Positions 2,262 to 53,598 of a stretch of DNA of 64,000 nucleotides are shown one piece after another; the stretch's first letter is position 1; each line of letters opens with the position of its first letter. The notes beneath the pieces are model-generated. The model was not told the origin of the DNA. It did not search any database and was given only the letters and a program-made list of their open reading frames with translations. The stretch comes from Campylobacterota bacterium (GTDB taxonomy: Bacteria > Babelota > Babeliae > Babelales > RVW-14), in assembly GCA_020633995.1 (NCBI GenBank), contig JACKCO010000003.1, positions 73,503-137,502 of the forward strand, in the 5' to 3' direction. The position numbers and the translations under genes are program-made.

Positions 2262-2299
2262 AAGCGTAAAAAATAAAAACAGATAAAAGGGAGAAAGCA

Positions 2300-6160: not shown

Positions 6161-6179
6161 CATAAAGAAGTAAAAAAAA

Positions 6180-6206
6180 GGTGGGTAGAATTTAATTCTA
6201 CCCACC
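6180..6206 (+). terminator. Strong intergenic hairpin (11-bp perfect stem ggtgggtagaa / ttctacccacc), possible terminator or attenuator
   Basis: Stem 6180-6190 pairs with 6196-6206 around a 5-nt loop, 20 nt after the stop at 6160. It is flanked by A-runs rather than a downstream T-tract, so it is not a textbook intrinsic terminator. Confidence 0.45.
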
Positions 6207-6225
6207 TAAATAAAAAAGGGGAACC

Positions 6226-6987
6226 ATGTTGCACTTTATAGCGCCCTCCAAACAAGCTCCACGCTCTCTAAAGATCGGGCCTCTTATTCTCGTAATCTTT
6301 TCTCTGCTTGTACTGCAAACTTCAAAAGCGGCCATCGCTGACGATATTAGTGCGCTACAAAAGCAACTTACGCAACTAAAACAAGACTACGAGAGTGCAA
6401 TGATGTCTCTACAAGGCCTAGTTGACAATCGGGTTGCACAACAAATTCCAAATTTCACTCAGCCATTTGAAGCACAACTTGTACAACTTAACGCAGAGCT
6501 TGACGCTCTCATTCCTACCTTAGCAGAGCAAGTAACACCCGCTATCAAACAAAAAGTACAAGATATTATTAGCGATGAAATTAACACCCATATCCAAAAC
6601 AGTGTCGATCAGTCGGTAAATAGTGCATTTTTAAACGAATTCCAAGGAACTATTGATACCGAAGTGCTAGGACAAGTTAGGCAAATTGTGCAAGAACGCA
6701 TAGAGCCAATATTGCAGGACGTCCAAGCTATACAGGCAACACTTACACCTGAGTCAGCATCCACAGTTGATATCACAACTCCTCAGCGTGCACAGCAGGC
6801 TCGTGGTCGCGGTCGTGCTCCTCGTGCAACGCGCACGTCTGGACGCGTAAGAACGGCTCCACAAGGTCGTGAGGACAGAACGACGTCCCGCGCTAGAGCA
6901 CAAGTCCAACCTACACGCTCGACAACTCGCAGCACTGAACGACAAACAACATCTACAGACCGTACTCGTCGCAGTCGGGGATCTTAA
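6226..6987 (+). CDS. Small exported coiled-coil protein with Arg-rich tail ('headless' stalk-tail protein, 253 aa)
   Basis: The RBS is AAGGGGA. There is an N-terminal hydrophobic signal/anchor (LKIGPLILVIFSLLVLQTSKA). The Q/L/E-rich helical region is homologous to the C-terminal stalk of the 3805-aa protein (QDIISDEINT vs EQIISDELNT). The last ~65 aa are R/T/S-rich (RGRGRAPRATRTSGRVRT...RTRRSRGS). Confidence 0.85.
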   Translation: MLHFIAPSKQAPRSLKIGPLILVIFSLLVLQTSKAAIADDISALQKQLTQLKQDYESAMMSLQGLVDNRVAQQIPNFTQPFEAQLVQLNAELDALIPTLAEQVTPAIKQKVQDIISDEINTHIQNSVDQSVNSAFLNEFQGTIDTEVLGQVRQIVQERIEPILQDVQAIQATLTPESASTVDITTPQRAQQARGRGRAPRATRTSGRVRTAPQGREDRTTSRARAQVQPTRSTTRSTERQTTSTDRTRRSRGS

Positions 6988-7127
6988 ATATAGTGGAGGT
7001 AGTACAATTAAATTATTTCTTATTTGAAAATATTGACTTATAGGGAACTGTCTGTGATAAAGTGATATTAGAGCCTTTATAATTGATACAATATACGTAA
7101 AAAAACCGTATACTTAGGGGGAACAGA

Positions 7128-8201
7128 ATGAACGCCTACAAACTCATTCAAGTAAAATTGGCAAAAAGTTTATTATTTTTTGCCCTGCTTATTGCAGGAT
7201 CATCACAACTTGCCTTCGCCGCAGAGGCAGAAGAAACAGTTGCAGTCACGCCTGAACAAGTAGTTACAGAACAGCTTGCAAAGCAGAATTTGGCAACAGG
7301 AGCAGACGTTGATGGACTTATGAATAATGTACTTGCCAATTTAAAAGAAGCTGGGCAAGCACCAGAGGTTCAGTCAGATCAATTGAAAGCTGTCTTTGAT
7401 CAACTTAACTCCTTCAATAGCGCAGTCGGAAACATCGCCCAAGCAATAAAACAAATAGATGAATCACAAAAAGCAATCGAACAACAGGTTAACACCATTC
7501 GGCAACAACAAGAAGAAAAAAAAGGTGGCCGTATGGAAAGGTTTGCACAGCGTATGACCGAGCAAGCAGAACCAGGTGTTACTGAGACGGCAACCGGGCA
7601 AACCCCGACCGAGCCAACAACCGCAACTCAAGTAGCGCAGGTAGCGCAAGCTCAACGAGGTCGCGCATCACGCCGTGCAGGCGGAGTCGCACGAGGCAGA
7701 CGAGGTGAACCTACACCTGCAATCGTCCAGGCAGATCAAGCAGCCGATCAAACGGCGGGTCAAGCAGCTGCAGCTCCAGTAGCGACAAGAGGCCGTGCTC
7801 GAGTTACACGCGGTGCCACAACAAGACAAGCAGCGGCCGGCACACCAACACGCCGCGGAGCTAGAGGCACTCCAGCCGCTAGTCCAGCACAACCTGCAAC
7901 AACCCAGGAAGCAGCAGCTCCAGCTACCCCGACACGAGGCAGAGCAACACGCGCAGCAGGCGCAGCTCCAACAGCCAGTCGTGCAACACGTGGGCGAGCT
8001 ACACGGGCCGCTGGTGCAGTCTCACCTACTCGAGGCCAAGCAGCAGGCAGACAAGCAGCAGCTGATGCAACACGAGCCACACGCGGACGTCAAGCTCAAG
8101 CAAGTGGCGTACCACGTACCCGTCAAGCCGGACAAACTCGTCGCCAGGCAGCAGCTGGCGGTGGTGGAGCTCGTCAAACAAGAGCAACAGCACGTGGATA
8201 A
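7128..8201 (+). CDS. Exported coiled-coil protein with ~180-aa Arg/Ala/Thr/Gly tail (357 aa)
   Basis: The RBS context is CTTAGGGGGA. The signal peptide is LLFFALLIAGSSQLAFA. A short helical Q/E-rich region is followed, from ~7654, by a low-complexity tail with repeated TRGRATRAAG / TRGRARVTRG / TRRGARG units running to the stop. Confidence 0.85.
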   Translation: MNAYKLIQVKLAKSLLFFALLIAGSSQLAFAAEAEETVAVTPEQVVTEQLAKQNLATGADVDGLMNNVLANLKEAGQAPEVQSDQLKAVFDQLNSFNSAVGNIAQAIKQIDESQKAIEQQVNTIRQQQEEKKGGRMERFAQRMTEQAEPGVTETATGQTPTEPTTATQVAQVAQAQRGRASRRAGGVARGRRGEPTPAIVQADQAADQTAGQAAAAPVATRGRARVTRGATTRQAAAGTPTRRGARGTPAASPAQPATTQEAAAPATPTRGRATRAAGAAPTASRATRGRATRAAGAVSPTRGQAAGRQAAADATRATRGRQAQASGVPRTRQAGQTRRQAAAGGGGARQTRATARG

Positions 8202-8285
8202 ATTTTTTTTAGATTAAAAAAGTTAAATAACTCATTTAAAAAAATAGATTTTAATTTAGTTACTACCTGAGGGGGGGAGTAAAAA

Positions 8286-11200
8286 ATGAAGCAGTCGATC
8301 GGAGGCACGATTGTAGTAAAAATACAATCGACAGTGTTCTGGTCGATTGCTTTTTTACTATTTACGCTGCATGGAACTACAAACGCAGCAAGTATAAAAT
8401 ATGGCGATCGAGTAAGAATACACTTCTCAAGTAAAACTAACACATCTGGCAGCGGAAAGGTATATCTCAGCGGTTCATCAGACTCAAAAGCATTTGCTAG
8501 CGAGGCAACATCTACTGCAAGCGACAACTGGATTATTGAAGGAGGAACTGTTGGCCAAGCCGTAACGACAGGAAACATTATACTTAAACATGAATCAACC
8601 GGAAAATATCTTGCAGAAAACCAAGCCAATCAACTCAACTTCGGTCTTCCTGGCTTCTTTTTTGAAGTAAGACTGCAAAGCTCAACATTCAACTGGTTTG
8701 TTTATAGCGACGGAGGCAGCAACGCTCTTGACAGCACAAAGCGTTTTTTACTTTCTCCTGGTGGAAACCAATCTGCCTATAGACTCGGAATATCAAACTC
8801 ACTTTATTCTTCAAGCGATCCCAAAAAATATATTATCACAAACTATCATCATGGCTACGGCGCTAATCCATTTGGAACATTTCCATGGCTTAGCACTGAA
8901 GCTGCTTTACCGCCGGCTGCACCTGCACCAGCGCCTGCTCCCCAGCCAGTGCCTGCTCCAACATCTGGCACCATTTATGGTAACGTATGGGGTATAGGAC
9001 CGACTAATAAAGTATATTTTCGTGAGGGTATTAGTAACGCTAATCCAACCGGCACGTCATGGTCTGAAGTCACTGGACTTTTAGCAAGCAATATCACAGT
9101 AGGACCTGATGGAAGAGTATGGGCACTAAATACGACTGCAGTTGAAGGAGGACATCAAGTTTATTACCGTGAAGGGATCACTGCATCTAACCCCAAAGGA
9201 ACTAGTTGGTCAAGAGTTGATGGTGGTTTAGCTCTGCTGGCAACAGGCCTTGGAGGACAATTATGGGGCGTTAACAACAGTGACAATTTATTTTTCCGTC
9301 AAGGCATAACATCAGGTAACCCTAAAGGAACATCATGGCAACATGTAAACCCATATTTTAAATATATTGATGCAGGCTCAGATACATACAACAGCGTTTG
9401 GGCAACCGGATCGTATCCCGGCGTTGTTTATCGACATTGGGGCAACACCACAACCCAGCCAGGCACAACTTGGTCTCCTGTAGAAAGTTATGAAATCAAG
9501 CAAATCGCAGTTGGCCCTAATGGTCAACCGTGGGGTATAAACGCGAGCAACGAAGTTGTCGCTAGAACAGGTATAACAGGCCAACAAAAAGATGTTAAAG
9601 GTACTGGCTGGCAAGCATGTGCTACTGGTGCAAAATTTGTTGGGGTAACTCGAAGCAACCAAGTATGGATGGTCAAAAATGATAACTCCATATGGGTATC
9701 TGAAACGGCCGATATGAATAATATGGCATGGCAACAAATAGACGGCTCACTGACAAAAGTTAGTGGTGGCGGCATGCCAGCGGGCTATGTACCCGGACCT
9801 TCATATCCTAGCGATGAAATACAATACGGTCAGGACATCCGTCTTGTTTGGTCAACATATCCCACAGCAGAAGTTGCTATCTCCGCATCTGCGGAAGGAA
9901 AACCATTTGGCAGCACTACAAAAACAAGCAACGATATCTGGACAATTCTTCCAACAAGCGGACAGACTGGAGTAGTAAAGCATGCTCATCAGTTTTATCT
10001 CAGACACAAAAATACTGGAAAATTCCTCTGTTACAATGGTAGCAACGCCACGCTTGATGATGGAAATCCTACTTTAAGTATTGTAATTGATAGCATGCAA
10101 AATGGACAACACATTGATACATCAGATCAACAAAACATACCATGGCTCAAAAATTATGACCGCATTGCTATCAGAACACCATCTCCCATTCGTGATTTTT
10201 TCTACTTTCCGGGAACAAAGTATACCAACCAACTCGGCCAGCAATACAACGCAGCTTGGACGTTTATAGAAAACGCACAAAAGGAACAATATTTTCCCTT
10301 TTTCAAAGCAACACCAACCACAGGACTTTCAACTCCACCTGAACCACAACCCGCACCACAGCCAGCACCTGAACCACAACCTGCACCTACCCCAGTAAAT
10401 CCTACCGACAATGTGTGGGCTGTATCTGAATCTGATGGTAAAGTCTGGTTTAGAGAAGGTGTAACTGCAACAAAACCTGAAGGTACAAGTTGGACTGAAA
10501 TCCCGGGCCTACAAGCCCGATGGATCAACGTCAGTCCCCGTGGAGAAGTATGGGCTACTACAAGAACTTCTAGCCCCGTCCCCTATTACCGTACTGGCAT
10601 TACACCTGAAAACCCAAAAGGTACCAGCTGGACTCTAGTTGACGGTGGCAATATCATGCAAATCGGTGCTGGCCTAGAAGGACAACTCTGGTGCAAAACC
10701 TACCTAGGAGAACTTTTTTACCGCACGGGAATTACCGAACAAAATCCTACGGGTAATGGATGGACAAAAATCACAGACGGCAATGTAAATGCCTATCGTT
10801 TTGCTGTAGGCGCGAATGGTGCCGTTTGGGCAACCGACTCTAACCAAGAGGCAGGTACAGGCTTTAGACCGGTATACAGAACAGGAGTCACCACAAGCAG
10901 CCCTGGTGGTACCGGTTGGCAAACTGTTACTGACGGCTTTAACGTCTCAGCCGATCTTGCCGTTGGCCCACAGGGACAACTCTGGACCATTAACACCGTA
11001 TTTCAAGCATCTGCACGCTTGGGCATTACTCCATCAAACCCTCTGGGCACATCATGGAGTAACTACTTTACCGGCATGAACTCATCACTTATGTCAGTAT
11101 CACCTAACAACAATCTCTGGCTGATTAATAGAAGTAATCAAATCTTTATTGCAAAAGACCCAACGCCTGGCTCTCCTTCATTTACTGGTGTGGGAGGTGC

Positions 11201-14200
11201 ACCATCACCACTTACCGTTATCAGTGCTGGCGGTTATCCAGGAACAATACAAACACAAACTTTGCCTCCGCCAGATCCTGACAAATACTTTCTCTATGAC
11301 CCTGCAAGCACGCCAAATAAATACGATAATAAAACATATCGCGATGCATGGAAATTGCCTGAAGCAAATCGTGGTATTATTCAATTCCGTGCTCGAGGAT
11401 TAAATGACTTGCACGTCAATCTTGGACCAGACAAAAACAACACCCATGGACAGATGTATGAAATTTTAGTTGGCGCAAACAACAATGCAGCCTCCTACCT
11501 TAAAAAGCAAAAAGTCGTCCCACCGTTTTTAAGTCCCGTAAATGCGTCACAATTTCCTCAAGCAGTTTTAGAAGGCGGTAAGCCAAGTGGACAAGGCGAC
11601 ATTTGGAATGACTTCTGGATTATCGTAGATCAGCAATTTATCCTCGTTGGGAAAGGAACCAGTCCAGGAATACCTGAAGAAATTATTTTGTGGCATCAAG
11701 ATCCATACCCACATACTGTCAACTATTTTGGTCTTGGTGGTTGGGATGCTCGTGTTGAATTTGATAACATTCGAGTCGCTCCGCTCACCAATCCCCCTAA
11801 AATCACTGACTTAACCAAATATACTCGTGCTCCAAATACTCAAACAATTTGGGAAAAAGCAGATCTTAAGTATCACCCTAACTGGAAACTACCAGTGCAA
11901 GGATCTGGCTCAATTACCTTCCGCGCAAAAGCTGCTAACAATATAATTGTCAGCATTGCACCAGGACTGTCTAGCTTTACTCAGGGTGATATCCCACCCG
12001 ACTATGATGGAGCAACCTACTTCTTCAACTTTGGAGCTAGTAATAATACACTAAGTGGTCTTTACAAAAATAACATCGACAGTGCACCAATTGAATTTAA
12101 CAACTCTGCAAACGCACGTATCAACAACGCAAATGCTTTTGAGGACTACTGGATTTCCGTAGAACCAGACGGTACATTACGCGCAGGTAAAGGATCTCCT
12201 GGCAATGCACCGCTCATCACACACAAAGATGCAAATTTTGCAAACAACATCCTGCAAGTTGGTTTTGGAGGTAAGGGCGCCACAACTGTGGAATTCACCA
12301 ATATAACCTTTGGCCAACCACTTGAAATTGTACCTGAAATTTCCCCGCAAGAACAAGCTCAATCAATTAAATATGGAGACAAGGTTGTACTTGGCATACA
12401 CAGTTCTGTGGCAAACCTGACAAAAGGTAAACCTAATTCACTTGTTGTTATTGCAACTGGTTCTGGCGAAGTAAACCCATGGTACAAAGATCAACAAGTT
12501 GCTTATGGCTGGGAAAGCGCAACAAATCTTTCAGAGTTTACGGTTCTTGCATCACACGAAGAAGGTGATAATGCACGCCTGGGTCAAGCAGTAAGAGCTG
12601 GTGATACTATCAGGCTAAAAAGTATTCCAACAAATTTATTCTTGCACTCGCACGCAGACAGAAACACCTGGAGTTCCGACACACCACCATCAATAAAACT
12701 ACAAGAGGTAACAGGCTATCCAAATAGAGATAGCAATGATAACTGGGAGCTAATTGTTAAAGACAACAGCTACTCATATTGGAACAAAGCAGCTGAAGTT
12801 ACACTGCGCCACAAAGCAACACAAAAATATCTACACGTTATTGACTACCGTTGGTGGTGGGGCCCAGGAGGAACCGACGCGTGGGCACTAGCATATAGCG
12901 TCGGGGCTAAAGATGCCCCAATACAACAATACTTTATTACCAATGAAGGCAGAGCTCTTTTTGAACAACAGCAAATTAGAGAAAAACTACAGCCAGAAGG
13001 CCAATGGATTATTGACCGCCACGGCAACACCTGGGGTACTACCGATACCGACCATCCGCAATCTGCTGGCAACAAAGAATTATACTTTAGGAAAGCCGGT
13101 CAAGAAAATTGGGAACCTATCGCAGGTGCGATTACCATGCTTGCAGCACATCCACAAAAAGACCAGGTTTGGGCTATAAATAAAGACGGTTCAATCTTTG
13201 CACGTCTTAATGTAACAAGCGGAAATCCACAAGGGAACTCATGGGCCGGTGTACCTGGTAATCTAACGCAAATTGCAATCAATCAAGACAATCACTTTGC
13301 TGGTACTGACTCTGCAAATAAAGTGTATTTTTCACCTACCGATGACCCTGGCAATCCTTCATGGATGTTACTATTACCACCACTGCAGCAATCTGATACA
13401 CGTCCATGGGAATTGAGCATTGATGATCATCCACTCTTTACCGGTAATAAACGAGTATTTTTCAATACACAAAACGGCTGGATAGAAATTGAAGGCGCTA
13501 TGAAGCAGCTAGCACGGAGAAGCAATGGCCATGTTTGGGCAATAAAAAATGACAACAGCATCTACTTTAGAGAGGGAGTAAACACTCAAAACCCGATGGG
13601 TTCAAGCTGGAAACCAGTTGCAGGCTCACTAACAAGTATTGGGGTTAATCAACAGGACACCATTATTGGAACAAACCAACTGGGCGATAATATATTCTCA
13701 TTAACTAACGATCCGAATAATCCACAATGGCGAAATGTTGTTCCACCACTTCAAGAACCATATGTTGTTGGTCCACAAGGACACACATGGGCTTTGAGTG
13801 TTAACGACCATACAGAGTTCCCTGGTAATAAACGAATTTTCCACAAACTACCTGATCAATGGATTGAAATTGATGGAGCATTAAAAAAACTGGCCGTCGG
13901 TACTAACGGACAAGTATGGGGTATCAATAGCACTAACACCCTTTTCTCTCGTGACGGCATAACTGCACAAAACACTGCAGGATCAGGCTGGATCGTTGTT
14001 CCCGGCAATCTCAAAGATATTTTATTTGATAGCCAAAATAATCAATTCATCGGTATTAACGAATTTGATGAGGATGTTATCTCTCAAACCAGTGATCCAA
14101 ATAATCCTGCGTGGATACCATTCCTACAAACACCCGATGGCCGCTGGACTCTGAGTGATGTTGATCATAAAAATTCTCTAAATAATAAATACACTTTCTT

Positions 14201-17200
14201 CAAAGAAAATAACGGCTTATGGAATCTGGTCGAGGGAGCTTTGTCCCAAATCAGCGTTAGCCCAAACAACGAGGTATGGGGCATACAGGCCAATGGCAAT
14301 GTCTTCACTCGTCAAGAAATTACTCCACAAAACCTTAAAGGGTCAAGTTGGTTACAAGTTCCTGGGCAGCTATCAGAAATCGCCGTTGGCAACGATGGCA
14401 TTGTATACGGCAAAACACTTGCAAATAAAGGCGTGTTTTTGGCAAACGAAGACCTCGCAAATCCACTGTGGCTTGAAGTACTACCAGCACTTCAACAATC
14501 AAATACCCGCCCATGGGAACTTAGCCAGGCTGATCACCCGCTTGTTCCTGGCGAAAAACGAATTTTTTATAACCTCGGCGATAAGTGGGTTGAAGTCGGC
14601 GGCACGCTCAAACAACTTGTGCTCAGACCTAATGGTGATGTTTGGGGAATTAATAGCGAACATGAAATCTATTTCCGCGACGGTATAACACAACAAAATC
14701 CATTAGGCACTGATTGGGTTGTTGTTCCAGGAAAACTCGCTGACATTCGTCTTGACGGTAACGGCACCATCAACGGGACAACCCCAGAAGGTCAAGATGT
14801 GTACTCAATCACCAACAACCCTATTGATCCAGCATGGAGAAATTTAACACCACCGCTGCAAAGTCCTGTTACTGGCCCTGACGGCCACACATGGGCTCTA
14901 AGCATTGCTGACCATCCACAATCACCGGGCGACAAACGAATTTTCTTCCAAGAACAAGATACTTCGTGGAGCGAGGTTGATGGAGCTCTCAAACAAATTT
15001 CTGTTGGACCTGGAGGCCAAGTCTGGGGAACAAATATAAACAACCAAATTTTCTATCGCAATGGTGTAACTGAACAAAATCCTAAAGGAACGGACTGGAT
15101 TCAAACACCTGGTATTTGCACCGTATGTACCATTAATCCGGACGGCTTTGTAACAGGAATAACGCCTGACGGTGACACAATCATCTTTAATGGTAATTTT
15201 ACAAATCCTAACTGGGTACCAGCCGATAGCTTGCATAATTATGATCCTGATAAACAAACTCCTGGCTCATTAACATTCAAACCCGAATGGGGCCTACCGC
15301 AGCCAAGCCGTGGTAACGTACTCTTCAAAGCAAAGGCACAAGCCAGCATTGCCATCGGCTTAAGTCCAATTGACCGAACACTTCCTGGCAACATGTACCA
15401 ACTAAGCATTGGTGGTGACAATAACACAAGCACCTTTATCACTGACGGTACCAGCAACAGACTTCAGAGTACTAACAACCAAGAAGCATTAATCGATAAT
15501 CAAAACGTCTTTATCCCATACTGGGTCACCGTCTATGATGATACAATTGTTGTAGGCCGAGGTGTCATTCCTGGCGAAAATGAATTCTTCAGATATCAAG
15601 ACCAGTCACCGGTACAAAATCTTACCAATGTTGGTCTTGGTGGTTTGCAAAATCCTGTTGAATTCAAAGACATCTCTATAATAGCTGCAACAAAACCAAC
15701 GCTCCTGCTCCCTCCATTGCAAACACCTATTACAGATCCTACAACTGGCTCTACATGGGTACTGAGTGAAGATGATGATCCTAGCAATCCTGGCAATAAA
15801 CAAATATTCTTTAAGCATCAAGACAGCGATGAATGGAATAAAATTGAAGGAAGCTTAACAGCTCTTGCAATTCACCCAACAAGCGGACAAATTTGGGGTA
15901 TTAATGCAAACAATGATATTCTCGCCCGTAATGGTATAACAGCACAAAACCCAGCAGGAACAAGCTGGTCCACAATCCAGGGCAAACTTAAAACTATTGA
16001 AATAATTACATTTGGTACCATGCCACATTTTGGGGGAACTAACCTTAACGACCAAAGCATATTCTCACAAACCGATGCTCCTAATAATCCAGCATGGATT
16101 GAACTCAAACAAGCACAACAACAAGCAGCACAAGAAGCTGAACAAAAACGCATCAATGATCTGTTGCCACCTGCCACCGAATGGATTCCCGACACACGTG
16201 GCAACAATTGGGCGCTCAGCACACAACAAGATTCAACTGGAAACAGAGAGGTATTCTTTCAACACGCCGGACAACTATGGCAAGCATTGCCTGACACTCC
16301 TCTCAAGAATCTGATTGTCGACAATAATGGAAACCTTTGGGCCATTACCGGTAATAGCACGGTCTACACCCGTGATGGTATAACCGACCAAACACCTCAA
16401 GGAACAACATGGACTCAAATACCTGGCGCACTTGAGCAAATTAATTTTGAGCAAGACAAAAACCTAGTCGCAGGTATAACGCCTGATCAACAAGGTGTTT
16501 ACTCTCAAACCGGCACACCACAAAATCCAGCCTGGATACCATACCTTAATCCAGTTAACAATCGTTGGGCACTGAGCCGAGATGACCACCCTGCTCAGCC
16601 AGGTAACAAACGTATCTTCTTTAAAGAAAACAATAATCTATGGACAGAAATAGATGGAACACTTTCTCAAATGAGCGTTGGCAACAATAATCAAGTTTGG
16701 GGCGTTGATAACAATAGCAACGTATTTACCCGAGAAGGTATAACGCCAGAAAACCTTAAAGGTACTAACTGGAAACAAGTTCCTGGCAAACTAACCACGA
16801 TCGATATTGATAACGATGGCATTATTTTTGGTACCACTCCAGAAGGTAAAGAGATCTACCTTGCAAACGATGATCTACAAAATCCGGTATGGCTTGAAAT
16901 ATTACCGCCACTACAACAATCAGATACTCGTCCGTGGGAGCTCAGTCAAGCAGACTACCCAGGCTACCCCGGTGACAAACGAGTATTTTATGAGCTACCA
17001 GATGGTTGGACTGAAGTAGGTAAAACACCGCTCAAAAAACTTGTAGTAACACCAAATGCTCAAGTGTGGGGTATTAATAATAACGGTGACACTTTCTACC
17101 GCGAAGGCATAACAACACAAAATCCAACAGGTACCGGATGGGGAACAATCCCTAGAAAATTTGTTGATATAGAACTAGATAAAAATAATAACATTGTTGG

Positions 17201-19703
17201 TACTACACCTGAGGGTAATAAAATTTACACGCCAACAAACAATCCACAAAATCCTGAGTGGCGTCCCGTCGTTCCACCTCTGCAACCTCCACAAACAGAT
17301 CCAAACGGCAACAAGTGGGCACTCAGCCAAGGTGACTCTCCTGACTCTCCAGGCAACAAAGAAATTTTCTTTCAATCGCAAGACAGTGATCAGTGGAATA
17401 AACTTAGTGGAAACTTAATTGATATTGCCATTCATCCAACAGGTGGACAAGTCTGGGGCGTTAACGCAAACAACGATATTTTTGCTCGAGAAGGCATAAG
17501 TTCTGCAGACCGCTCTGGTACAGGTTGGACAACAGTGTTTGGCAAACTTAAAGATATTTCAATCATCACATTCCAAAATGAACCACATTTTGGTGGTACT
17601 GATATCAACGATCGAATAATCTTCTCACAAACCGATAATGCACAAAATCCTGAATGGACACAACTTTCCCAAGCAGAACAAGAGGCACTCAACAATGCAG
17701 AACTAGAGAGAATCAGTAGCCTACTGCCACCGCCTGCTGAGTGGGTCATTGACGGACGCAATAATGCATGGGCACTCAGTATGCAAGCTGACGACAATGA
17801 TAACCGAGAAATCTTCTTCAAAGGCACTAATAACATGTGGACAGCCCTTGACGGACAAAAACTTGCAGCACTTGTTGCAGATACTACCAATGTTTGGGGG
17901 ATCGACAGCACAGCAAATATTTATACACGACAAGGTATAACTGATCAACTCCCACAAGGAACCAATTGGCTCGTTGTTCCTGGCCAACTAACCGAAATTC
18001 ATTTTGATCCAACCAACAACGAAATTTGGGGGATAACTCCTGATGGTGAAGAAGTTATTTCACAAACCAATAATCCACAAAATCCTGATTGGCGACCAAG
18101 TATCCCGCCGCTACAAAACGAGCAAACTGATCCAAACGGCAATACATGGGCTCTCAGCAAAAATGATGATCCTGACAATCCTGGCAACAAGGAAATCTTC
18201 TTTAAACCTCAAGGTGGCAACAAATGGATAAAGGTTAATGGAGGCTTAATAGGATTGGCAGTTCATCCAACAGATGGACAAGTATGGGGCGTTGACGCAA
18301 ACAATACTATTTTTGCACGTGCTGATATAGGACCTGCTCAAACGCAAGGAACCGAGTGGCTACCGGTTTCCGGTAAACTCAAGGACATTTCGATTATTAC
18401 ATTCCAAAACAACCCACACTTTGGCGGAAACAATCTCAATAATCAAATTATTTTCTCACAAACTGATGACGCAGACACCCCACAATGGACACTGCTTTCT
18501 CAAGCTGAGCAAAAGGCACACACACAAGCAGAACAAGAACGAATCAATAGCCTGCTACCATCACCAGCAGAATGGATCATTGACGGACGCAACAACACAT
18601 GGGCATTGAGTACGCAAGCTGACGACAATGGAAATCGTGAAGTATTTTTCAAAGGGCTGGACAATGTATGGCTCTCGATTCCAGAACAAAAACTTGCAGC
18701 ACTTATTGCAAATCCTGACAATGTCTGGGGTGTGGACGGTGCAGCAAATATTTATACACGACAAGGTATAACTGATCAGCTCCCTCAAGGCACCAACTGG
18801 CGTATCATTTCAGGACAGTTGACTGAAATTCACTTTGATCCAACCAATAATGAAATTTGGGGAATAACTCCTGAAGGAAGAAGAGTCGCCTCACAAACAA
18901 ATAATCCACAAGATCCTCAATGGAAAGTAGTGCCAACACCTGAAGAAGCCAGCGCACAAGAACTTAGTCAACTCACCAAAGAGCTCAACGAACTAAGAAA
19001 CAGAATTAACAATTTGGGCACAACGGTTAACACTGCCACAGACGGTGCTATAACCAATAAACTCCCAGCAGAACAAAATCAATTGCAAGATCAATTTAAT
19101 GCGCTCTACGACAAGCTAGACAGCCTCGCGCCAGCAGTTGAATCAAGCATCAAACCTATGCTGGAACAAATAATTAGTGATGAGCTTAATACTCAACTCT
19201 TGGACCCCGCACTACCACAAATAATAAACCAAACAACTATTGATACAATCAGAAAGAAAGCAATTGACAGTATCAGCCAACCACTCTCTGAGCAAATCAA
19301 TCAAGCAATAGACAGCGGAATAGATCAAGCACAGCAAGCCATCGCTCCATTTATCCCAGATGAATCAGTCATAGAAGAACCTGCAAGCACTCCCGAACCA
19401 GAATTAGAAACAGTAGAACGAGCGCGAGGTCGTCGTCCACGTCCTACACGTACTCGTAGACGCGCCGCTGCTGAACCAGAAACAGAGCGCGCCATTCGTC
19501 AAGTTGGAAGTGAAATGCTTCGAGAACGAGATAGACAACTACCTGAGATTGTAACGAGAGAACAAAAAGCGCTACAGCAAACAAGTTTCAGACAAGCACT
19601 CCCAGAAGCTGGGCCACGCCAAGATCAACAGGACACAAGCATCTTGCAACAAAAACAAGCAAAACCCACAACTCCAGTGCGCCGTACTCGTGGCCAACGA
19701 TAA
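8286..19703 (+). CDS. Giant exported multi-lectin-like protein (3805 aa): beta-trefoil/MIR-like, dozens of tectonin blades, FAMeT-N-like beta-sandwiches, C-terminal coiled coil, Arg-rich tail
   Basis: The RBS is GAGGGGGGGAG. The signal peptide is VFWSIAFLLFTLHGTTNA. Trefoil-like segments start at IKYGDRVRIHF, IQYGQDIRLVW and IKYGDKVVLGI (with IRLKSIPTNLFLHSHADRN). PAPAPAP / PEPQPAP linkers are present. Tectonin blades recur throughout, matching GxxWG(V/I)Nxxxx(I/V)(F/Y)xRxGITxxNPxG(T/S)xW. FAMeT-N-like modules lie at ~11340-12330 and ~15250-15690 (LHVNLGPDKNNTHGQMYEILVGANNN; IAIGLSPIDRTLPGNMYQLSIGGDNNTSTFI). The coiled coil spans ~18940-19400, and the basic tail starts at ~19420 (RARGRRPRPTRTRRR ... 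PVRRTRGQR). Confidence 0.9.
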   Translation: MKQSIGGTIVVKIQSTVFWSIAFLLFTLHGTTNAASIKYGDRVRIHFSSKTNTSGSGKVYLSGSSDSKAFASEATSTASDNWIIEGGTVGQAVTTGNIILKHESTGKYLAENQANQLNFGLPGFFFEVRLQSSTFNWFVYSDGGSNALDSTKRFLLSPGGNQSAYRLGISNSLYSSSDPKKYIITNYHHGYGANPFGTFPWLSTEAALPPAAPAPAPAPQPVPAPTSGTIYGNVWGIGPTNKVYFREGISNANPTGTSWSEVTGLLASNITVGPDGRVWALNTTAVEGGHQVYYREGITASNPKGTSWSRVDGGLALLATGLGGQLWGVNNSDNLFFRQGITSGNPKGTSWQHVNPYFKYIDAGSDTYNSVWATGSYPGVVYRHWGNTTTQPGTTWSPVESYEIKQIAVGPNGQPWGINASNEVVARTGITGQQKDVKGTGWQACATGAKFVGVTRSNQVWMVKNDNSIWVSETADMNNMAWQQIDGSLTKVSGGGMPAGYVPGPSYPSDEIQYGQDIRLVWSTYPTAEVAISASAEGKPFGSTTKTSNDIWTILPTSGQTGVVKHAHQFYLRHKNTGKFLCYNGSNATLDDGNPTLSIVIDSMQNGQHIDTSDQQNIPWLKNYDRIAIRTPSPIRDFFYFPGTKYTNQLGQQYNAAWTFIENAQKEQYFPFFKATPTTGLSTPPEPQPAPQPAPEPQPAPTPVNPTDNVWAVSESDGKVWFREGVTATKPEGTSWTEIPGLQARWINVSPRGEVWATTRTSSPVPYYRTGITPENPKGTSWTLVDGGNIMQIGAGLEGQLWCKTYLGELFYRTGITEQNPTGNGWTKITDGNVNAYRFAVGANGAVWATDSNQEAGTGFRPVYRTGVTTSSPGGTGWQTVTDGFNVSADLAVGPQGQLWTINTVFQASARLGITPSNPLGTSWSNYFTGMNSSLMSVSPNNNLWLINRSNQIFIAKDPTPGSPSFTGVGGAPSPLTVISAGGYPGTIQTQTLPPPDPDKYFLYDPASTPNKYDNKTYRDAWKLPEANRGIIQFRARGLNDLHVNLGPDKNNTHGQMYEILVGANNNAASYLKKQKVVPPFLSPVNASQFPQAVLEGGKPSGQGDIWNDFWIIVDQQFILVGKGTSPGIPEEIILWHQDPYPHTVNYFGLGGWDARVEFDNIRVAPLTNPPKITDLTKYTRAPNTQTIWEKADLKYHPNWKLPVQGSGSITFRAKAANNIIVSIAPGLSSFTQGDIPPDYDGATYFFNFGASNNTLSGLYKNNIDSAPIEFNNSANARINNANAFEDYWISVEPDGTLRAGKGSPGNAPLITHKDANFANNILQVGFGGKGATTVEFTNITFGQPLEIVPEISPQEQAQSIKYGDKVVLGIHSSVANLTKGKPNSLVVIATGSGEVNPWYKDQQVAYGWESATNLSEFTVLASHEEGDNARLGQAVRAGDTIRLKSIPTNLFLHSHADRNTWSSDTPPSIKLQEVTGYPNRDSNDNWELIVKDNSYSYWNKAAEVTLRHKATQKYLHVIDYRWWWGPGGTDAWALAYSVGAKDAPIQQYFITNEGRALFEQQQIREKLQPEGQWIIDRHGNTWGTTDTDHPQSAGNKELYFRKAGQENWEPIAGAITMLAAHPQKDQVWAINKDGSIFARLNVTSGNPQGNSWAGVPGNLTQIAINQDNHFAGTDSANKVYFSPTDDPGNPSWMLLLPPLQQSDTRPWELSIDDHPLFTGNKRVFFNTQNGWIEIEGAMKQLARRSNGHVWAIKNDNSIYFREGVNTQNPMGSSWKPVAGSLTSIGVNQQDTIIGTNQLGDNIFSLTNDPNNPQWRNVVPPLQEPYVVGPQGHTWALSVNDHTEFPGNKRIFHKLPDQWIEIDGALKKLAVGTNGQVWGINSTNTLFSRDGITAQNTAGSGWIVVPGNLKDILFDSQNNQFIGINEFDEDVISQTSDPNNPAWIPFLQTPDGRWTLSDVDHKNSLNNKYTFFKENNGLWNLVEGALSQISVSPNNEVWGIQANGNVFTRQEITPQNLKGSSWLQVPGQLSEIAVGNDGIVYGKTLANKGVFLANEDLANPLWLEVLPALQQSNTRPWELSQADHPLVPGEKRIFYNLGDKWVEVGGTLKQLVLRPNGDVWGINSEHEIYFRDGITQQNPLGTDWVVVPGKLADIRLDGNGTINGTTPEGQDVYSITNNPIDPAWRNLTPPLQSPVTGPDGHTWALSIADHPQSPGDKRIFFQEQDTSWSEVDGALKQISVGPGGQVWGTNINNQIFYRNGVTEQNPKGTDWIQTPGICTVCTINPDGFVTGITPDGDTIIFNGNFTNPNWVPADSLHNYDPDKQTPGSLTFKPEWGLPQPSRGNVLFKAKAQASIAIGLSPIDRTLPGNMYQLSIGGDNNTSTFITDGTSNRLQSTNNQEALIDNQNVFIPYWVTVYDDTIVVGRGVIPGENEFFRYQDQSPVQNLTNVGLGGLQNPVEFKDISIIAATKPTLLLPPLQTPITDPTTGSTWVLSEDDDPSNPGNKQIFFKHQDSDEWNKIEGSLTALAIHPTSGQIWGINANNDILARNGITAQNPAGTSWSTIQGKLKTIEIITFGTMPHFGGTNLNDQSIFSQTDAPNNPAWIELKQAQQQAAQEAEQKRINDLLPPATEWIPDTRGNNWALSTQQDSTGNREVFFQHAGQLWQALPDTPLKNLIVDNNGNLWAITGNSTVYTRDGITDQTPQGTTWTQIPGALEQINFEQDKNLVAGITPDQQGVYSQTGTPQNPAWIPYLNPVNNRWALSRDDHPAQPGNKRIFFKENNNLWTEIDGTLSQMSVGNNNQVWGVDNNSNVFTREGITPENLKGTNWKQVPGKLTTIDIDNDGIIFGTTPEGKEIYLANDDLQNPVWLEILPPLQQSDTRPWELSQADYPGYPGDKRVFYELPDGWTEVGKTPLKKLVVTPNAQVWGINNNGDTFYREGITTQNPTGTGWGTIPRKFVDIELDKNNNIVGTTPEGNKIYTPTNNPQNPEWRPVVPPLQPPQTDPNGNKWALSQGDSPDSPGNKEIFFQSQDSDQWNKLSGNLIDIAIHPTGGQVWGVNANNDIFAREGISSADRSGTGWTTVFGKLKDISIITFQNEPHFGGTDINDRIIFSQTDNAQNPEWTQLSQAEQEALNNAELERISSLLPPPAEWVIDGRNNAWALSMQADDNDNREIFFKGTNNMWTALDGQKLAALVADTTNVWGIDSTANIYTRQGITDQLPQGTNWLVVPGQLTEIHFDPTNNEIWGITPDGEEVISQTNNPQNPDWRPSIPPLQNEQTDPNGNTWALSKNDDPDNPGNKEIFFKPQGGNKWIKVNGGLIGLAVHPTDGQVWGVDANNTIFARADIGPAQTQGTEWLPVSGKLKDISIITFQNNPHFGGNNLNNQIIFSQTDDADTPQWTLLSQAEQKAHTQAEQERINSLLPSPAEWIIDGRNNTWALSTQADDNGNREVFFKGLDNVWLSIPEQKLAALIANPDNVWGVDGAANIYTRQGITDQLPQGTNWRIISGQLTEIHFDPTNNEIWGITPEGRRVASQTNNPQDPQWKVVPTPEEASAQELSQLTKELNELRNRINNLGTTVNTATDGAITNKLPAEQNQLQDQFNALYDKLDSLAPAVESSIKPMLEQIISDELNTQLLDPALPQIINQTTIDTIRKKAIDSISQPLSEQINQAIDSGIDQAQQAIAPFIPDESVIEEPASTPEPELETVERARGRRPRPTRTRRRAAAEPETERAIRQVGSEMLRERDRQLPEIVTREQKALQQTSFRQALPEAGPRQDQQDTSILQQKQAKPTTPVRRTRGQR
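17268..18930 (+). repeat. Two tandem ~831-bp (277-aa) intragenic modules; a third, more diverged copy lies at ~15700-16540
   Basis: Copy 1 (17268-18098) and copy 2 (18099-18930) both read PPLQxxQTDPNGNxWALSxxDxPDxPGNKEIFF ... HPTxGQVWGVxANNxIFAR ... ISIITFQNxPHFGG ... LSQAEQ ... LLPxPAEWxIDGRNNxWALS ... IYTRQGITDQLPQGTNW ... EIHFDPTNNEIWGITP. Long identical nucleotide runs are visible, for example acacgacaaggtataactgatca. Confidence 0.85.
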
Positions 19704-19796
19704 AAAAATTGTACTTTACAAGAACTGTTGATTTTTCTGTCTCCTTTATGTCTAAACTGCGACAAATGAAGCTTTGTTAAAAAAAGGAGACACAAG

Positions 19797-20948
19797 ATGA
19801 AACAATATCGACCAAGTATTATATTGCTTACAATATTACTATTTTGCCTAAGCAGTGCGAATGCAATGGTACCGGCTCCAGTGACAGCAACGCCACCAGT
19901 ACCACAACCAGTGATGCAACCTCCTATGCAAGCACCATCACCAATGAGCGCCCCCGCTAACACCCCTGCCCCTGCACCGGTTTTGCCAAAACCAGTAGCA
20001 CCATCACCGGTAATGGGGGTACCCGCCGCTAGCCCCATGGCACCCCAAGGCGCCGTACCTGCGGCTGTTTCCCAACCAGCTCCAATCAGGCCGGCCATGC
20101 CTGCCCCACTCGTTCAACCAGCCCCTTCAATAGCAGCACCGGTAGGTGCCACAGCTGGATCATTTACTTTTGACAAAAAGATTTTATATAGACCTGAATG
20201 GAAATTTGATTACGCACAAAACAAACGTTCGGTGACCTTTGAAGTCGATGCTTCAAAAGGTGGTGTACACGTCGCGCTCTCACCGCAAATGCAAAGCACA
20301 CAAGGTCAAATGTACCATCTCATCTTTGGTCTTCGCACTAAAAAAGGTCCGATATCTGTACTGGGCAAAGGACTTGGTAAAATTCCTGGGACTGAAGATC
20401 GCTACCCTATCCTTGCCAAGGCTCCCGGCATGGGCTCTGGCACCTATACCGTTACTTTTGATAACGGAAAAATCACTTTGGTACGAAATGGACAAACAAT
20501 CCCTTGGACGATAAAGCAAGGTGGACAAAATACACAGGTAACCGAATGGCGTGACCCAAGCCCCGTTCCAAACATTCAATACGTAGGATTTGGTAACTTT
20601 AGTAAATTTCCAGTTACCTACAAATCGGTCGAAATCGTGACAACACAGGCAGCTGCTCCGAGCGCTCTGGCAACACCCGCCGTAACACAACCACAACCAA
20701 TTACGCCAACCGTAACTCCGGTGGCCCCTGCTCCTGTTCGACCTGCAATACCAGCAGCACCATCTCCTATGGCACCTCGACCAGCAATACCAGCGCAACC
20801 TAGCCCAGTACCACTAACACCTTCTCGATCAGCGCTACCAACATTACCAGGGCGTCAGACTCGTCAGCGTATGCTCCCTCAACCACGCCCAACAACAACA
20901 CGCCCGGGAACAAGTGCCCGTCCAATGCTACCAAGGCTAACACGATAA
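19797..20948 (+). CDS. Exported proline-rich protein with one FAMeT-N-like beta-sandwich and short basic tail (383 aa)
   Basis: The RBS is AAAGGAGA. The signal peptide is IILLTILLFCLSSANA. Long PxPxP tracts flank a central module (YRPEWKFDYAQNKRSVTFEVDASKGGVHVALSPQMQSTQGQMYHLIFG ... IQYVGFGNF). The C-terminus is RQTRQRMLPQPRPTTTRPGTSARPMLPRLTR. Confidence 0.85.
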   Translation: MKQYRPSIILLTILLFCLSSANAMVPAPVTATPPVPQPVMQPPMQAPSPMSAPANTPAPAPVLPKPVAPSPVMGVPAASPMAPQGAVPAAVSQPAPIRPAMPAPLVQPAPSIAAPVGATAGSFTFDKKILYRPEWKFDYAQNKRSVTFEVDASKGGVHVALSPQMQSTQGQMYHLIFGLRTKKGPISVLGKGLGKIPGTEDRYPILAKAPGMGSGTYTVTFDNGKITLVRNGQTIPWTIKQGGQNTQVTEWRDPSPVPNIQYVGFGNFSKFPVTYKSVEIVTTQAAAPSALATPAVTQPQPITPTVTPVAPAPVRPAIPAAPSPMAPRPAIPAQPSPVPLTPSRSALPTLPGRQTRQRMLPQPRPTTTRPGTSARPMLPRLTR

Positions 20949-20953
20949 AATAT

Positions 20954-20986
20954 AAAAAAGCCCCTGGTTTTGCCAGGGGCTTTTTT
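20954..20986. terminator. Bidirectional rho-independent terminator between convergent genes
   Basis: The sequence is aaaaaa-gcccctgg-ttttg-ccaggggc-tttttt. An 8-bp GC-rich stem is flanked by an A-run upstream and a T-run downstream. It lies between the stop at 20948 (+) and the stop at 20985 (-). Confidence 0.8.
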
Positions 20987-21578
20987 ATCGCAATGCTTCT
21001 CGCATCTGCTTAAACTTTTTCTTTACAAACTTTCTAGCCGTTCGCCTCAGTAAACCAAATGGTTTTATCCTGTCTACAATTTGCTCGTGAAGCCTGTTCT
21101 CTTGCTCAGTAGACAAACGCAAATCGTCACGAGAATAAACACCACCTAAAAAAACAACTGACTGTTGCTTGCTCACTTCGCGTGGCTGAAAAAATGTTAC
21201 TTTAAGTCCAAAAGGATCTTTGATTGTAAAAGAAGACATTTCATCATCGTGCTCAAGCTCACGAATAACCTTGATGTCACGCTTACAGCAACGATCAAAA
21301 TATTTCCCAAGCCCAGTACGTATTTCAATGGTTATCGAAATACAACGCCCAGCACATCGTTTGATAAAACTAAACTCGGCAAGTTCTTCTACACTCGGGC
21401 TTTTGAATGTAACAAAGCACTTCCCTTTTTTTAGACGCGCTGACACAACATGTGCTTTTTCGTATTCCGATTGCTTAATGTCAATATCAACTACATCAAA
21501 TGCAAGTTTGTCTGTATAAAAACGTAGTGCCTGTTCAACACATTCAACAACGACAACCAGCTCGCCTGCTTTTTTCAT
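20985..21578 (-). CDS. Hypothetical protein, N-terminal glyoxalase/VOC-like fold (weak call)
   Basis: This 197-aa ORF starts with VVVVECVEQALRFYTDKLAFDVVD, which resembles the first beta-alpha-beta element of vicinal-oxygen-chelate family proteins. There are no other recognisable motifs. Confidence 0.4.
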   Translation of the reverse strand: MKKAGELVVVVECVEQALRFYTDKLAFDVVDIDIKQSEYEKAHVVSARLKKGKCFVTFKSPSVEELAEFSFIKRCAGRCISITIEIRTGLGKYFDRCCKRDIKVIRELEHDDEMSSFTIKDPFGLKVTFFQPREVSKQQSVVFLGGVYSRDDLRLSTEQENRLHEQIVDRIKPFGLLRRTARKFVKKKFKQMREALR

Positions 21579-42319: not shown

Positions 42320-42349
42320 TCTATAACAAAAAACCAGGGGGATTTGATA

Positions 42350-48411: not shown

Positions 48412-48527
48412 CAAAAACCTTTCGCTTATAAAAATGGAAAAAATGCCTGCTAACAATATCAAAAAAAAATGTTCTTATAAAATAAATGATTTTCGCTTAG
48501 ATTTTTTTGAAAAAATGAAGAACAAGT

Positions 48528-53482: not shown

Positions 53483-53598
53483 CAAAAACCTTTCGTTTAT
53501 AAAAATGGAAAAAAATGCTTGCTCAACAATATCAAAAAAAATGTTCTTTTAAAATAAATGCTTTTTTAGTTGGGTTTTTTGAAAAAATGAAGAACAAA

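Follow-up and report, generated by a model that had tools for sequence, protein, structure and literature searches.

What is encoded by an uninterrupted reading frame of 3805 codons in the genome of an uncultivated bacterium, and what might such a protein do for the cell? The open reading frame (ORF) in question lies on the + strand (8286..19703) of the 64,000-nucleotide stretch of DNA analysed here (the window), which covers positions 73,503 to 137,502 of contig JACKCO010000003.1 (728,521 bp) in the metagenome-assembled genome (MAG) GCA_020633995.1. The frame starts with ATG; it has no internal stops, as an earlier reading of the DNA letters (the sequence-only reading) had reported. Its product, referred to here as the giant, is 100% identical to the NCBI protein MCB9492698.1 (P0001 in our searches; locus tag H6679_00310), which is annotated as a "hypothetical protein"; the sequence is already public, though uncharacterised. 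We think it probable, though well short of certain, that the giant is a Sec-exported, multivalent surface lectin or adhesin directed at protist hosts.

Scans of the whole protein against Pfam returned Tectonin (PF19193) at 747.9 bits (cut-off 30; E 1e-226) over 16 stretches and Hyd_WA (PF06462) at 511 bits (cut-off 21) over 19 stretches, together with three matches to Methyltransf_FA (PF12248) and a match to MIR (PF02815). When scanned in isolation, the three Methyltransf_FA modules (FA1, FA2 and FA3) and the trefoil MIR3 all scored above the family thresholds (24.2 bits for Methyltransf_FA and 25.6 bits for MIR; scores in Table 1). The trefoil-like modules T1 (aa 35-205) and T2 (aa 505-690) gave no Pfam match when scanned alone, and T1 gave chance-level matches only against PDB sequences. 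T1 and T2 are 27-33% identical to one another, and a profile of T-type modules aligned with a profile of MIR-type modules, both from this genome, with an hhalign probability of 98.7% (E 2.3e-16). Because of this alignment and the Pfam match of MIR3, three trefoil-like regions are supported, MIR3 directly and T1 and T2 via remote homology; the profile-profile result supports T1 and T2 as divergent MIR-like trefoils. By these matches the giant is a member of the tectonin/TECPR family with bona fide MIR and Methyltransf_FA modules, and the sequence-only reading, which had called tectonin blades, three FAMeT-N-like modules and three trefoil-like regions, proved correct on all three.

The modules lie between a signal peptide and a C-terminal tail. 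The signal peptide, as read from the sequence, consists of a basic n-region, the hydrophobic core STVFWSIAFLLFTL and then TNA|A, and T1 and T2 are followed by a Pro/Ala linker and a PEPQ linker, respectively. At the C terminus, the helical part of the tail is coiled-coil-like and rich in Q, E and L, and the disordered part carries the cationic patch RARGRRPRPTRTRRR and ends in RRTRGQR.

Between these ends, the protein contains 14 copies of a super-unit (SU) of 114-149 aa (median 126.5), arranged in two blocks of six and eight that are split by FA3. A recurring super-unit had been proposed from the letters and is real, but the size then given (130-140 aa) was wrong and the proposed PPLQ delimiter is present in just 8 of the 14 copies; W-x-L-S is found in 13, and all 14 have a GNKRxFF-like motif. 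Invariant across the alignment are four Trp, one Arg, two Gly and one Pro. The copies sort into four types (a, b, c and d), and the three d-type copies each have a helical insert of ~27 aa. In an AlphaFold2 (AF2) model, the helix between SU11 and SU12 (Table 1) corresponds to model residues 136-153, with a block predicted local distance difference test score (pLDDT) of 83-95, and homologous inserts follow SU7 and SU13.

Each SU is made of three dissimilar blades. Blade b is canonical (VWG[IV]N ... [IV][FY]xR), blade c is degenerate (hxG[TI][TN]) and blade a is heavily altered, with W-A-L-S followed by an inserted DHPxxPGNK and by IFF. With a blade hidden Markov model (HMM), six canonical blades were found in each N-terminal propeller; in the SUs, all 14 blades of type b scored strongly, those of type c gave weak matches and those of type a hardly any. 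Two AF2 models show ~12 beta-strands per SU (six-unit model, pLDDT 81; d+c pair, pLDDT 89), and hence three four-stranded blades per SU; alignment to Tectonin 2 agrees, as did the earlier estimate of roughly three. The total comes to about 54 blades (12 + 42), which to our knowledge is the largest tectonin array.

How old is this array? DNA identity among the SU copies is 60-81%. Self-comparison identified a 277-aa d+c pair as the most recent duplication unit, and the most similar pair, SU11-12 versus SU13-14, is 66% identical in amino acids and 71% in nucleotides, with 0.23 nonsynonymous (dN) and 1.15 synonymous (dS) substitutions per site. Synonymous sites are saturated in all older pairs, and dN/dS across the copies is ~0.2. 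A dS of at least 1.15 and a dN/dS of ~0.2 show that the amplification is ancient and that purifying selection has preserved each copy. On the evidence of the alignments, the array is built by ancient serial duplication of a three-blade unit in which the blade positions each have their own conserved residues; the massive internal amplification posited by the sequence-only reading is seen here as one unit repeated within one gene.

Table 1. Features of the giant ORF and of its surroundings in the window (nucleotide positions count from the first letter of the window).
Feature	Position (nt)	Strand	Protein position (aa)	Evidence or remark
Whole ORF	8286..19703	+	1-3805	3805 aa plus stop; MCB9492698.1
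N-terminal Sec-type signal peptide	8286..8387	+	1-34	Read directly from sequence
T1, divergent MIR-like beta-trefoil	8388..8900	+	35-205	Homology to T2; profile-profile match
Tectonin propeller 1, six canonical blades	8958..9785	+	225-500	Pfam Tectonin 118.9 bits; blade HMM
T2, divergent MIR-like beta-trefoil	9798..10355	+	505-690	Homology to T1; profile-profile match
Tectonin propeller 2, six canonical blades	10383..11255	+	700-990	Hyd_WA 136.5 bits, Tectonin 88.1 bits; blade HMM
FA1 + FA2, Methyltransf_FA (FAMeT N-terminal type) beta-sandwiches	11283..12320	+	1000-1345	FA1, aa 1000-1165; FA2, aa 1170-1345; PF12248 56 and 33.2 bits
MIR3, MIR-domain trefoil	12321..12980	+	1346-1565	PF02815 27.1 bits
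Super-unit block A, six units, types a-b-c-a-b-c	13020..15221	+	1579-2312	Self-comparison, alignment, AF2
Block A unit starts	13020, 13395, 13776, 14136, 14502, 14880	+		
FA3, third Methyltransf_FA, separates the super-unit blocks	15222..15695	+	2313-2470	Pfam 48.6 bits
Super-unit block B, eight units, types d-c-a-b-d-c-d-c	15744..18971	+	2487-3562	Self-comparison, alignment, AF2
Block B unit starts	15744, 16191, 16554, 16923, 17304, 17751, 18135, 18582	+		
Confidently predicted alpha-helix between SU11 (type d) and SU12 (type c)	17670..17723	+	3129-3146	AF2, junction comparison
C-terminal tail	18972..19700	+	3563-3805	~180 aa helical, then disordered
Upstream co-oriented ORFs 6226-6987 and 7128-8201	6226..8201	+		Signal peptide, helical region, Arg-rich tail only
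Downstream co-oriented ORF	19797..20948	+		Signal peptide, Pro-rich region, FA module, Pro/Arg-rich tail
Palindromic terminator-like hairpin, upstream bound of putative operon	6179..6207	.		
Palindromic terminator-like hairpin, downstream bound of putative operon	20952..20988	.		16 pairs, A and T run flanks
Family ORFs, first part	12-2261; 2300-6160; 6226-6987; 7128-8201; 8286-19703 (giant); 19797-20948			
Family ORFs, second part	30925-33246; 33254-36937; 36994-40446; 40492-42294; 42344-44158; 44180-45250			

Comparison with solved structures bears on what the blades could bind. Against the PDB, the SU profile matched Tectonin 2 of Laccaria bicolor (5FSB; E 1.8e-33) and the carp fish-egg lectin (4RUQ; E 2e-20), and the same two structures were the top Foldseek matches of the AF2 pair model (E 5.5e-13 at 24% identity and E 2.9e-11 at 19%, respectively). 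In Tectonin 2 the sugar lies between blades, where it is held by Ser200, Asn216 and Tyr222 and stacked on a Trp of the next blade; these positions map to G-S-L, WGV-N, I-Y and W-xx-I-x-G. In the SUs, all three junctions keep the Trp without exception, F or Y stands at the Tyr position and the Ser position varies; the Asn-equivalent position differs by blade (b, N/D; a, S; c, T/N/D). This pattern fits three sugar-site types per SU that would be retained in a differentiated form.

The organism itself appears to be mislabelled. The MAG record is assigned to Epsilonproteobacteria/Campylobacterota. The named relatives of the FtsH encoded in the window (22268-24208, - strand), at 66-74% identity, all belong to Candidatus Babeliales, Candidatus Dependentiae or candidate division TM6 and none to Campylobacterota, so the NCBI label is probably wrong; an epsilonproteobacterial origin was rejected, FtsH pointing to the Dependentiae. 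Among GTDB species representatives, the best FtsH matches were MAGs at 63% identity in which the tolQ-tolA-tolB-ftsH synteny of the window is conserved. Long forms of ~880-890 aa are numerous among the top-scoring FtsH relatives (P0155-P0222), Babeliales included, and the window FtsH and a second group measure ~615-646 aa; the lineage seems to have two length classes of FtsH. Dependentiae are obligate associates of protists, and in the cultured Chromulinavorax destructans 44% of coding sequences have signal peptides, with Sec the only secretion system described.

Searches for relatives were performed with a HMMER profile of the 14 units against 1.84 billion cluster representatives, which returned 4204 proteins at E <= 1e-3, 251 of them at E <= 1e-30. 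Judged by these matches, the tectonin domain plainly occurs in many uncharacterised bacterial proteins, and the earlier supposition that tectonins are rare in bacteria is not supported in that form. The 48 best non-self matches carry Kelch, ASH/HYDIN-type Ig, SBBP, DUF1573, DUF7948, pro-kumamolisin and beta-helix partner domains, a set whose family assignments are typically of bacterial surface-protein type; FA and MIR were not among their 25 commonest partner families. Within the best 150 tectonin matches, a local FA profile was found outside the MAG only in P0012, P0015, P0116 and P0140. The closest relatives sit in bacterial chromosomal contexts, those of Babeliales or other obligate intracellular bacteria, as with P0044, whose contig encodes two ATP/ADP translocases and bacterial housekeeping genes, and P0153, where two tandem tectonin genes lie between gyrA and murB in a Babeliales MAG. 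P0015 is 35-37% identical to the giant's propellers and has the same design of tectonin, FA and cationic tail, and in metagenomic tectonin proteins, including one from a Babeliales MAG, tectonin modules (in some cases with FA) lie between a signal peptide and a Lys-rich tail.

The super-unit is far more restricted than the blade. Among the best 150 of the 4204 matches, whole-SU matches were confined to P0001, P0002, P0013 and P0079, all from this MAG, and the rest, apart from P0111 of the same MAG, matched in the generic blade region only. A word-indexed search with an SU pair (E <= 1e-5) found nothing, a scan of the GTDB species representatives with the giant found no relative, and a metagenome scan with three a+b pairs and the signature peptides QQS[DN]TRPW and DH[PK]..NK found no confirmed relative. 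As far as these searches reach, and among the best 150 of the 4204 matches, the three-blade super-unit appears private to this MAG. A fold search of viral models (BFVD) returned no tectonins, just propellers of the generic RCC1, Kelch and WD40 kinds, and no link between tectonins and Dependentiae was found in the literature searched.

The wider design has a deeper history. At a tolQ-adjacent syntenic locus in a different genus (L001, 656-6208, - strand; FtsH 63% identical), there are three genes of the family type: in the 1093-aa product of one, a signal peptide, MIR-like and FA modules and a helical region are followed by a Thr/Arg tail, and the two smaller products have a signal peptide, a helical region and a basic tail only. 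Since the family design is present at the syntenic locus of another genus, the family locus predates the split of these genera.

In the window, the giant belongs to a family of at least 12 ORFs (Table 1) that total 34.7 kb, or 54% of the window. All 12 have a signal-peptide-like N terminus and a disordered, strongly basic C terminus rich in Arg, Thr, Ser and Gln that lacks a hydrophobic segment, and the majority carry MIR-like, tectonin and FA modules in varied order. In the family grammar, as read from these ORFs, a signal peptide leads into a lectin-like head, which is followed by a helical stalk and then by a polycationic tail. In ORF 2300-6160, non-propeller regions flank exactly two SUs. 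On the 541,903-bp contig of the same MAG, P0002 (H6679_05170, 3158 aa) and P0013 (H6679_05125, 1660 aa) reuse the T, propeller and FA modules: propellers highly similar to those of the giant and one FA module are followed by a single SU and then by a coiled coil of >1000 aa. P0002 ends with a basic tail, and the P0013 sequence stops within the coiled coil, without one. In P0111 (H6679_03945, same contig), four two-blade partial units, nearly identical to one another, stand in tandem, and the basic tail has the motif R.TAKG[IV]RA[AT]TG[IM]GLS in common with that of P0002. Tails are Arg-rich in this MAG and Lys-rich in AT-rich relatives. Such basic tails, Arg/Thr/Ser/Gln-rich here and Lys-rich elsewhere, may represent an undescribed anchoring or sorting feature of Dependentiae.

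The co-oriented ORFs 6226-6987, 7128-8201 and 19797-20948 are probable operon partners of the giant, whose helical tail region is 27% identical to ORF 6226-6987. The two hairpins listed in Table 1 are long, perfect and flanked by A/T runs, and resemble bidirectional terminators; since they bracket ORFs 6226-20948, they suggest one putative transcription unit. A promoter scan gave chance-level matches only.

Several other features of the window were noted. ORFs 40492-42294, 42344-44158, 33254-36937 and 36994-40446 share the stretch KRFLTWGGPxQMFDVWTTNDK...ESHWFVSAFHKDSPEKK just ahead of an acidic and then basic tail, and ORF 44180-45250 has a weaker version of it. Between 40492-42294 and 42344-44158 the tails hardly differ, a sign of probable recent duplication or gene conversion. 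The window also encodes ankyrin-repeat proteins. ORF 54855-63890 (+, 3011 aa) has a signal-peptide-like start, a tectonin region, two FA modules and a long ankyrin array, with no basic tail. ORFs 46756-48462 (-) and 50069-53485 (-) have a nearly identical N terminus, MSKMFFKSLLLVLSVGL...; the 1138-aa member of this pair had no Pfam or NCBIfam match and its partner a weak ankyrin match only.

How would a protein of this kind be used? From the reading frame and its domain identities, the anatomy, age and selection of its repeats, the lineage and the paralog family, we infer export, surface retention, glycan binding and a role in host attachment. A signal-peptide-like N terminus is present in the giant and in all paralogs, and the tectonin, MIR-trefoil and FAMeT-N folds are used elsewhere for glycan recognition or as extracellular modules. 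After Sec export, the C-terminal stalk and tail would hold the protein, probably oligomerised through a coiled coil, at the anionic cell surface (the outer membrane or lipopolysaccharide (LPS)). The lectin modules, strung along the N-terminal part, would project outwards and bind glycans of host cells or particles with high avidity and mixed specificity, and this binding could promote attachment to, and uptake by, a protist host.

Several results weigh against this proposal. Pfam and NCBIfam scans of the giant found no RTX, autotransporter, type IX secretion C-terminal domain (T9SS-CTD), LPXTG or PEP-CTERM match, and no autotransporter barrel or YadA-type anchor was found by Pfam in the whole protein at E up to 0.01 or in the isolated tail at E up to 1. 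With no family match and no C-terminal hydrophobic segment, anchoring by RTX, autotransporter, T9SS or sortase/exosortase routes was rejected; indeed, no family member has a hydrophobic run of >=12 residues in its last 150 aa. The last 80 aa of the giant hold 16 R+K versus 11 D+E and are mildly cationic, so tail anchoring would be weaker for the giant than for its paralogs. As for the sugar sites, the conserved Trp and Phe/Tyr residues also form the structural core of the blades, so their conservation is no proof of intact sites. Furthermore, the AF2 model of the d+c pair (pLDDT as above; predicted template modelling score (pTM) 0.59) did not form a closed six-bladed ring and superposed on 5FSB with a TM-score of 0.41 and an rmsd of 13.5 A over about half its length, so that canonical inter-blade sites at the unit junctions are uncertain.

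The grouping of blades into propellers was considered further. Structure prediction, which had been suggested as a way to count propellers, gave three blades per SU but left the d+c pair unclosed, and no closed propeller in the PDB or BFVD gave a good superposition with this model. The pTM of the six-unit model (755 aa; pTM 0.38) fits about three independent domains, and its Foldseek matches in the PDB were mostly tandem WD-type propellers. The SU blocks hold 18 and 24 blades, both divisible by 6, so six-bladed rings are the only uniform solution. Judging from the models, the open pair reflects either a failure of AF2 to close a ring that contains the helical insert, or helices that serve as linkers between propellers in an offset register, which would leave SU1 and SU14 as orphan half-propellers.

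Instead of a surface lectin, the giant could be a soluble secreted effector that acts in the lumen of the host phagosome or in the cytosol, where it would bind glycoconjugates or membranes, or mimic TECPR, and block digestion or autophagy; its tail would then be a membrane-crossing or an organelle- or nucleic-acid-targeting signal, not an anchor. Arg-rich stretches are classic cell-penetrating and nuclear or nucleolar signals. The lineage is obligately protist-dependent, many of the signal-peptide proteins of Dependentiae have been proposed as effectors, outer-membrane vesicles have been seen in the food vacuole, and one of the ankyrin proteins of the window is fused to tectonin and FA modules. 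However, a beads-on-a-string protein of 3805 aa is a poor candidate for translocation, and no dedicated effector secretion system is known in the phylum. The DysF and PH modules of TECPR1 were not detected in the giant by Pfam, and the layout of head, stalk and C-terminal tail, with coiled coils of >1000 aa in paralogs, is typical of surface fibrils. We regard an effector role as unlikely.

The origin of the tectonin modules invites a further alternative, one that concerns history and not function, namely that they were captured from a eukaryotic host of amoebozoan type and then amplified. Every characterised tectonin comes from a eukaryote (slime mould, sponge, horseshoe crab, fish, fungus or human), and the slime mould Physarum has surface tectonins; eukaryotes are likewise where MIR and FAMeT-N modules are best known. 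The phylum of the bacterium depends on protists, and a metazoan protein, TECPR1-like from amphioxus, ranked 16th in the profile search, the other matches being otherwise unlabelled. Against this, the GC content (0.439), GC at third codon positions (GC3; 0.333) and codon usage of the giant gene are within the range of the neighbouring genes, and its duplicates are saturated at synonymous sites. Tectonin genes are present on other contigs from Babeliales or intracellular bacteria, and the family locus is syntenic in another genus. The best non-self matches have bacterial-type architectures, with the highest identity just 35-37%, to a protein of the same bacterial design. Taken together, these points exclude a recent event, and the horizontal transfer put forward by the sequence-only reading was rejected, as a recent event, on the native composition, the synonymous saturation, the tectonins of other Dependentiae-like genomes and the syntenic locus. 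A capture long ago, followed by amplification, is in our judgement rather unlikely.

It is more doubtful still that the giant forms part of a structural or protective coat, in which the modules would bind the cell's own LPS or polysaccharide and build, with the paralogs, a cross-linked matrix or capsule-like layer that shields the cell when it is outside the host or inside the food vacuole. Animal and slime-mould tectonins do bind bacterial LPS and O-methylated glycans, and polycationic tails would be expected to bind anionic LPS. The family is also very large and co-located, and the putative operon of the giant includes members with a stalk and tail only. Heads have diversified strongly among the paralogs, however, a pattern that resembles varied external targets more than a uniform coat.

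A more speculative arrangement, which we hold to be about as doubtful as a coat, would have the SUs act as half-propellers that are completed across chains or by distant parts of one chain, such that the giant and its paralogs zip, via their coiled coils, into a lectin lattice held by polycationic tails. An SU directly abuts the helical or coiled-coil stalk in the giant (its last SU), in ORF 2300-6160, and in P0002 and P0013, where a single SU immediately precedes the very long coiled coil. The helices after d-type SUs resemble this junction, and AF2 left a consecutive d+c pair open. If such a lattice existed, it would constitute an undescribed, phylum-wide system of surface display and anchoring in Dependentiae that governs recognition of protist hosts.

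Finally, it is exceedingly improbable that the giant ORF is an artefact of assembly or annotation (collapsed or chimeric repeats, or fused genes), the collapse risk raised by the sequence-only reading for a gene that is long, internally repetitive and from a MAG: SU copies no more than 81% identical in DNA let reads place uniquely and make collapse improbable even with short reads, the youngest copies differ by dS >= 1.15, all 14 SUs are in frame and have each diverged individually under purifying selection, the contig is 728 kb long, and the same module grammar recurs in paralogs on another contig.

Dependentiae are widespread, almost uncultured parasites or symbionts of protists, and the locus offers a concrete, testable candidate for how they recognise and enter their hosts: an expanded, exported-looking family, built from lectin heads, stalks and cationic tails, that takes up over half of a 64-kb region in a small genome. 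The scale of ~54 blades, the three-blade evolutionary unit with specialised blades, the mixture of tectonin, MIR and FA modules, and the family-wide polycationic tail are new here. They extend a lectin fold studied only in eukaryotic innate immunity to the bacterial side of host-microbe interaction, and the tail points to a possible new route of protein retention on the Gram-negative surface.

Among known systems, the overall layout of the giant can be compared with very long, modular exported proteins such as the RTX/T1SS adhesins LapA, SiiE and MpIBP, the trimeric autotransporters and M-protein-type coiled-coil fibrils. Giant bacterial adhesins carry ligand-binding, often lectin-like, modules on an extender or stalk with an anchor at one terminus, and the giant has a similar layout. 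Unlike them, it lacks RTX repeats and a type I secretion signal, an autotransporter barrel, LPXTG and Ig-like extenders; it has an apparent N-terminal Sec signal, and the part that would anchor it, a disordered polycationic tail, does not correspond to any described anchoring device. Among bacterial propeller lectins, sugars are bound between blades in RSL of Ralstonia, BambL of Burkholderia, and PLL and PHL of Photorhabdus. Lectins of the RSL type, in which a six-blade ring is assembled from sub-ring units, offer a precedent for SUs as half-propellers. PLL and PHL were among the Foldseek matches, but at 10-13% identity they have no sequence relationship to the giant, and are small soluble proteins of another blade family.

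The accessory modules and the blades also have counterparts in eukaryotic proteins. MIR3 and the three FA modules pass the Pfam thresholds of the families found in MIR proteins (PMT, SDF2 and IP3R/RyR) and in proteins with the FAMeT N-terminal domain; MIR and FA also occur in extracellular animal proteins, and in the giant they are accessory modules of a bacterial tectonin array. Human TECPR1 and TECPR2 resemble the giant in having several tectonin propellers per chain, but TECPR1 is cytosolic, with ~11 blades and DysF and PH modules, whereas the giant has a signal peptide and other partner modules. Closest are Tectonin 2 (5FSB/5FSC), 4RUQ, tachylectin-1/Limulus L6 and the Physarum tectonins, which share with the giant the blade motif W-x-x-[IV]-x-G-x-L...V-W-G-[IV]-N...[IV]-[YF]. 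Tectonin 2 and 4RUQ are its best PDB matches in both sequence and structure, with four-stranded blades and aromatic and polar site positions that may be retained in modified form. Lectins of the Tectonin 2 type are single six-blade propellers of ~220-240 aa from eukaryotes, whereas the giant is bacterial and exported-looking, with ~54 blades in which the repeating unit comprises three specialised blades (blade c without VWGxN) and is interleaved with MIR-like and FA modules.

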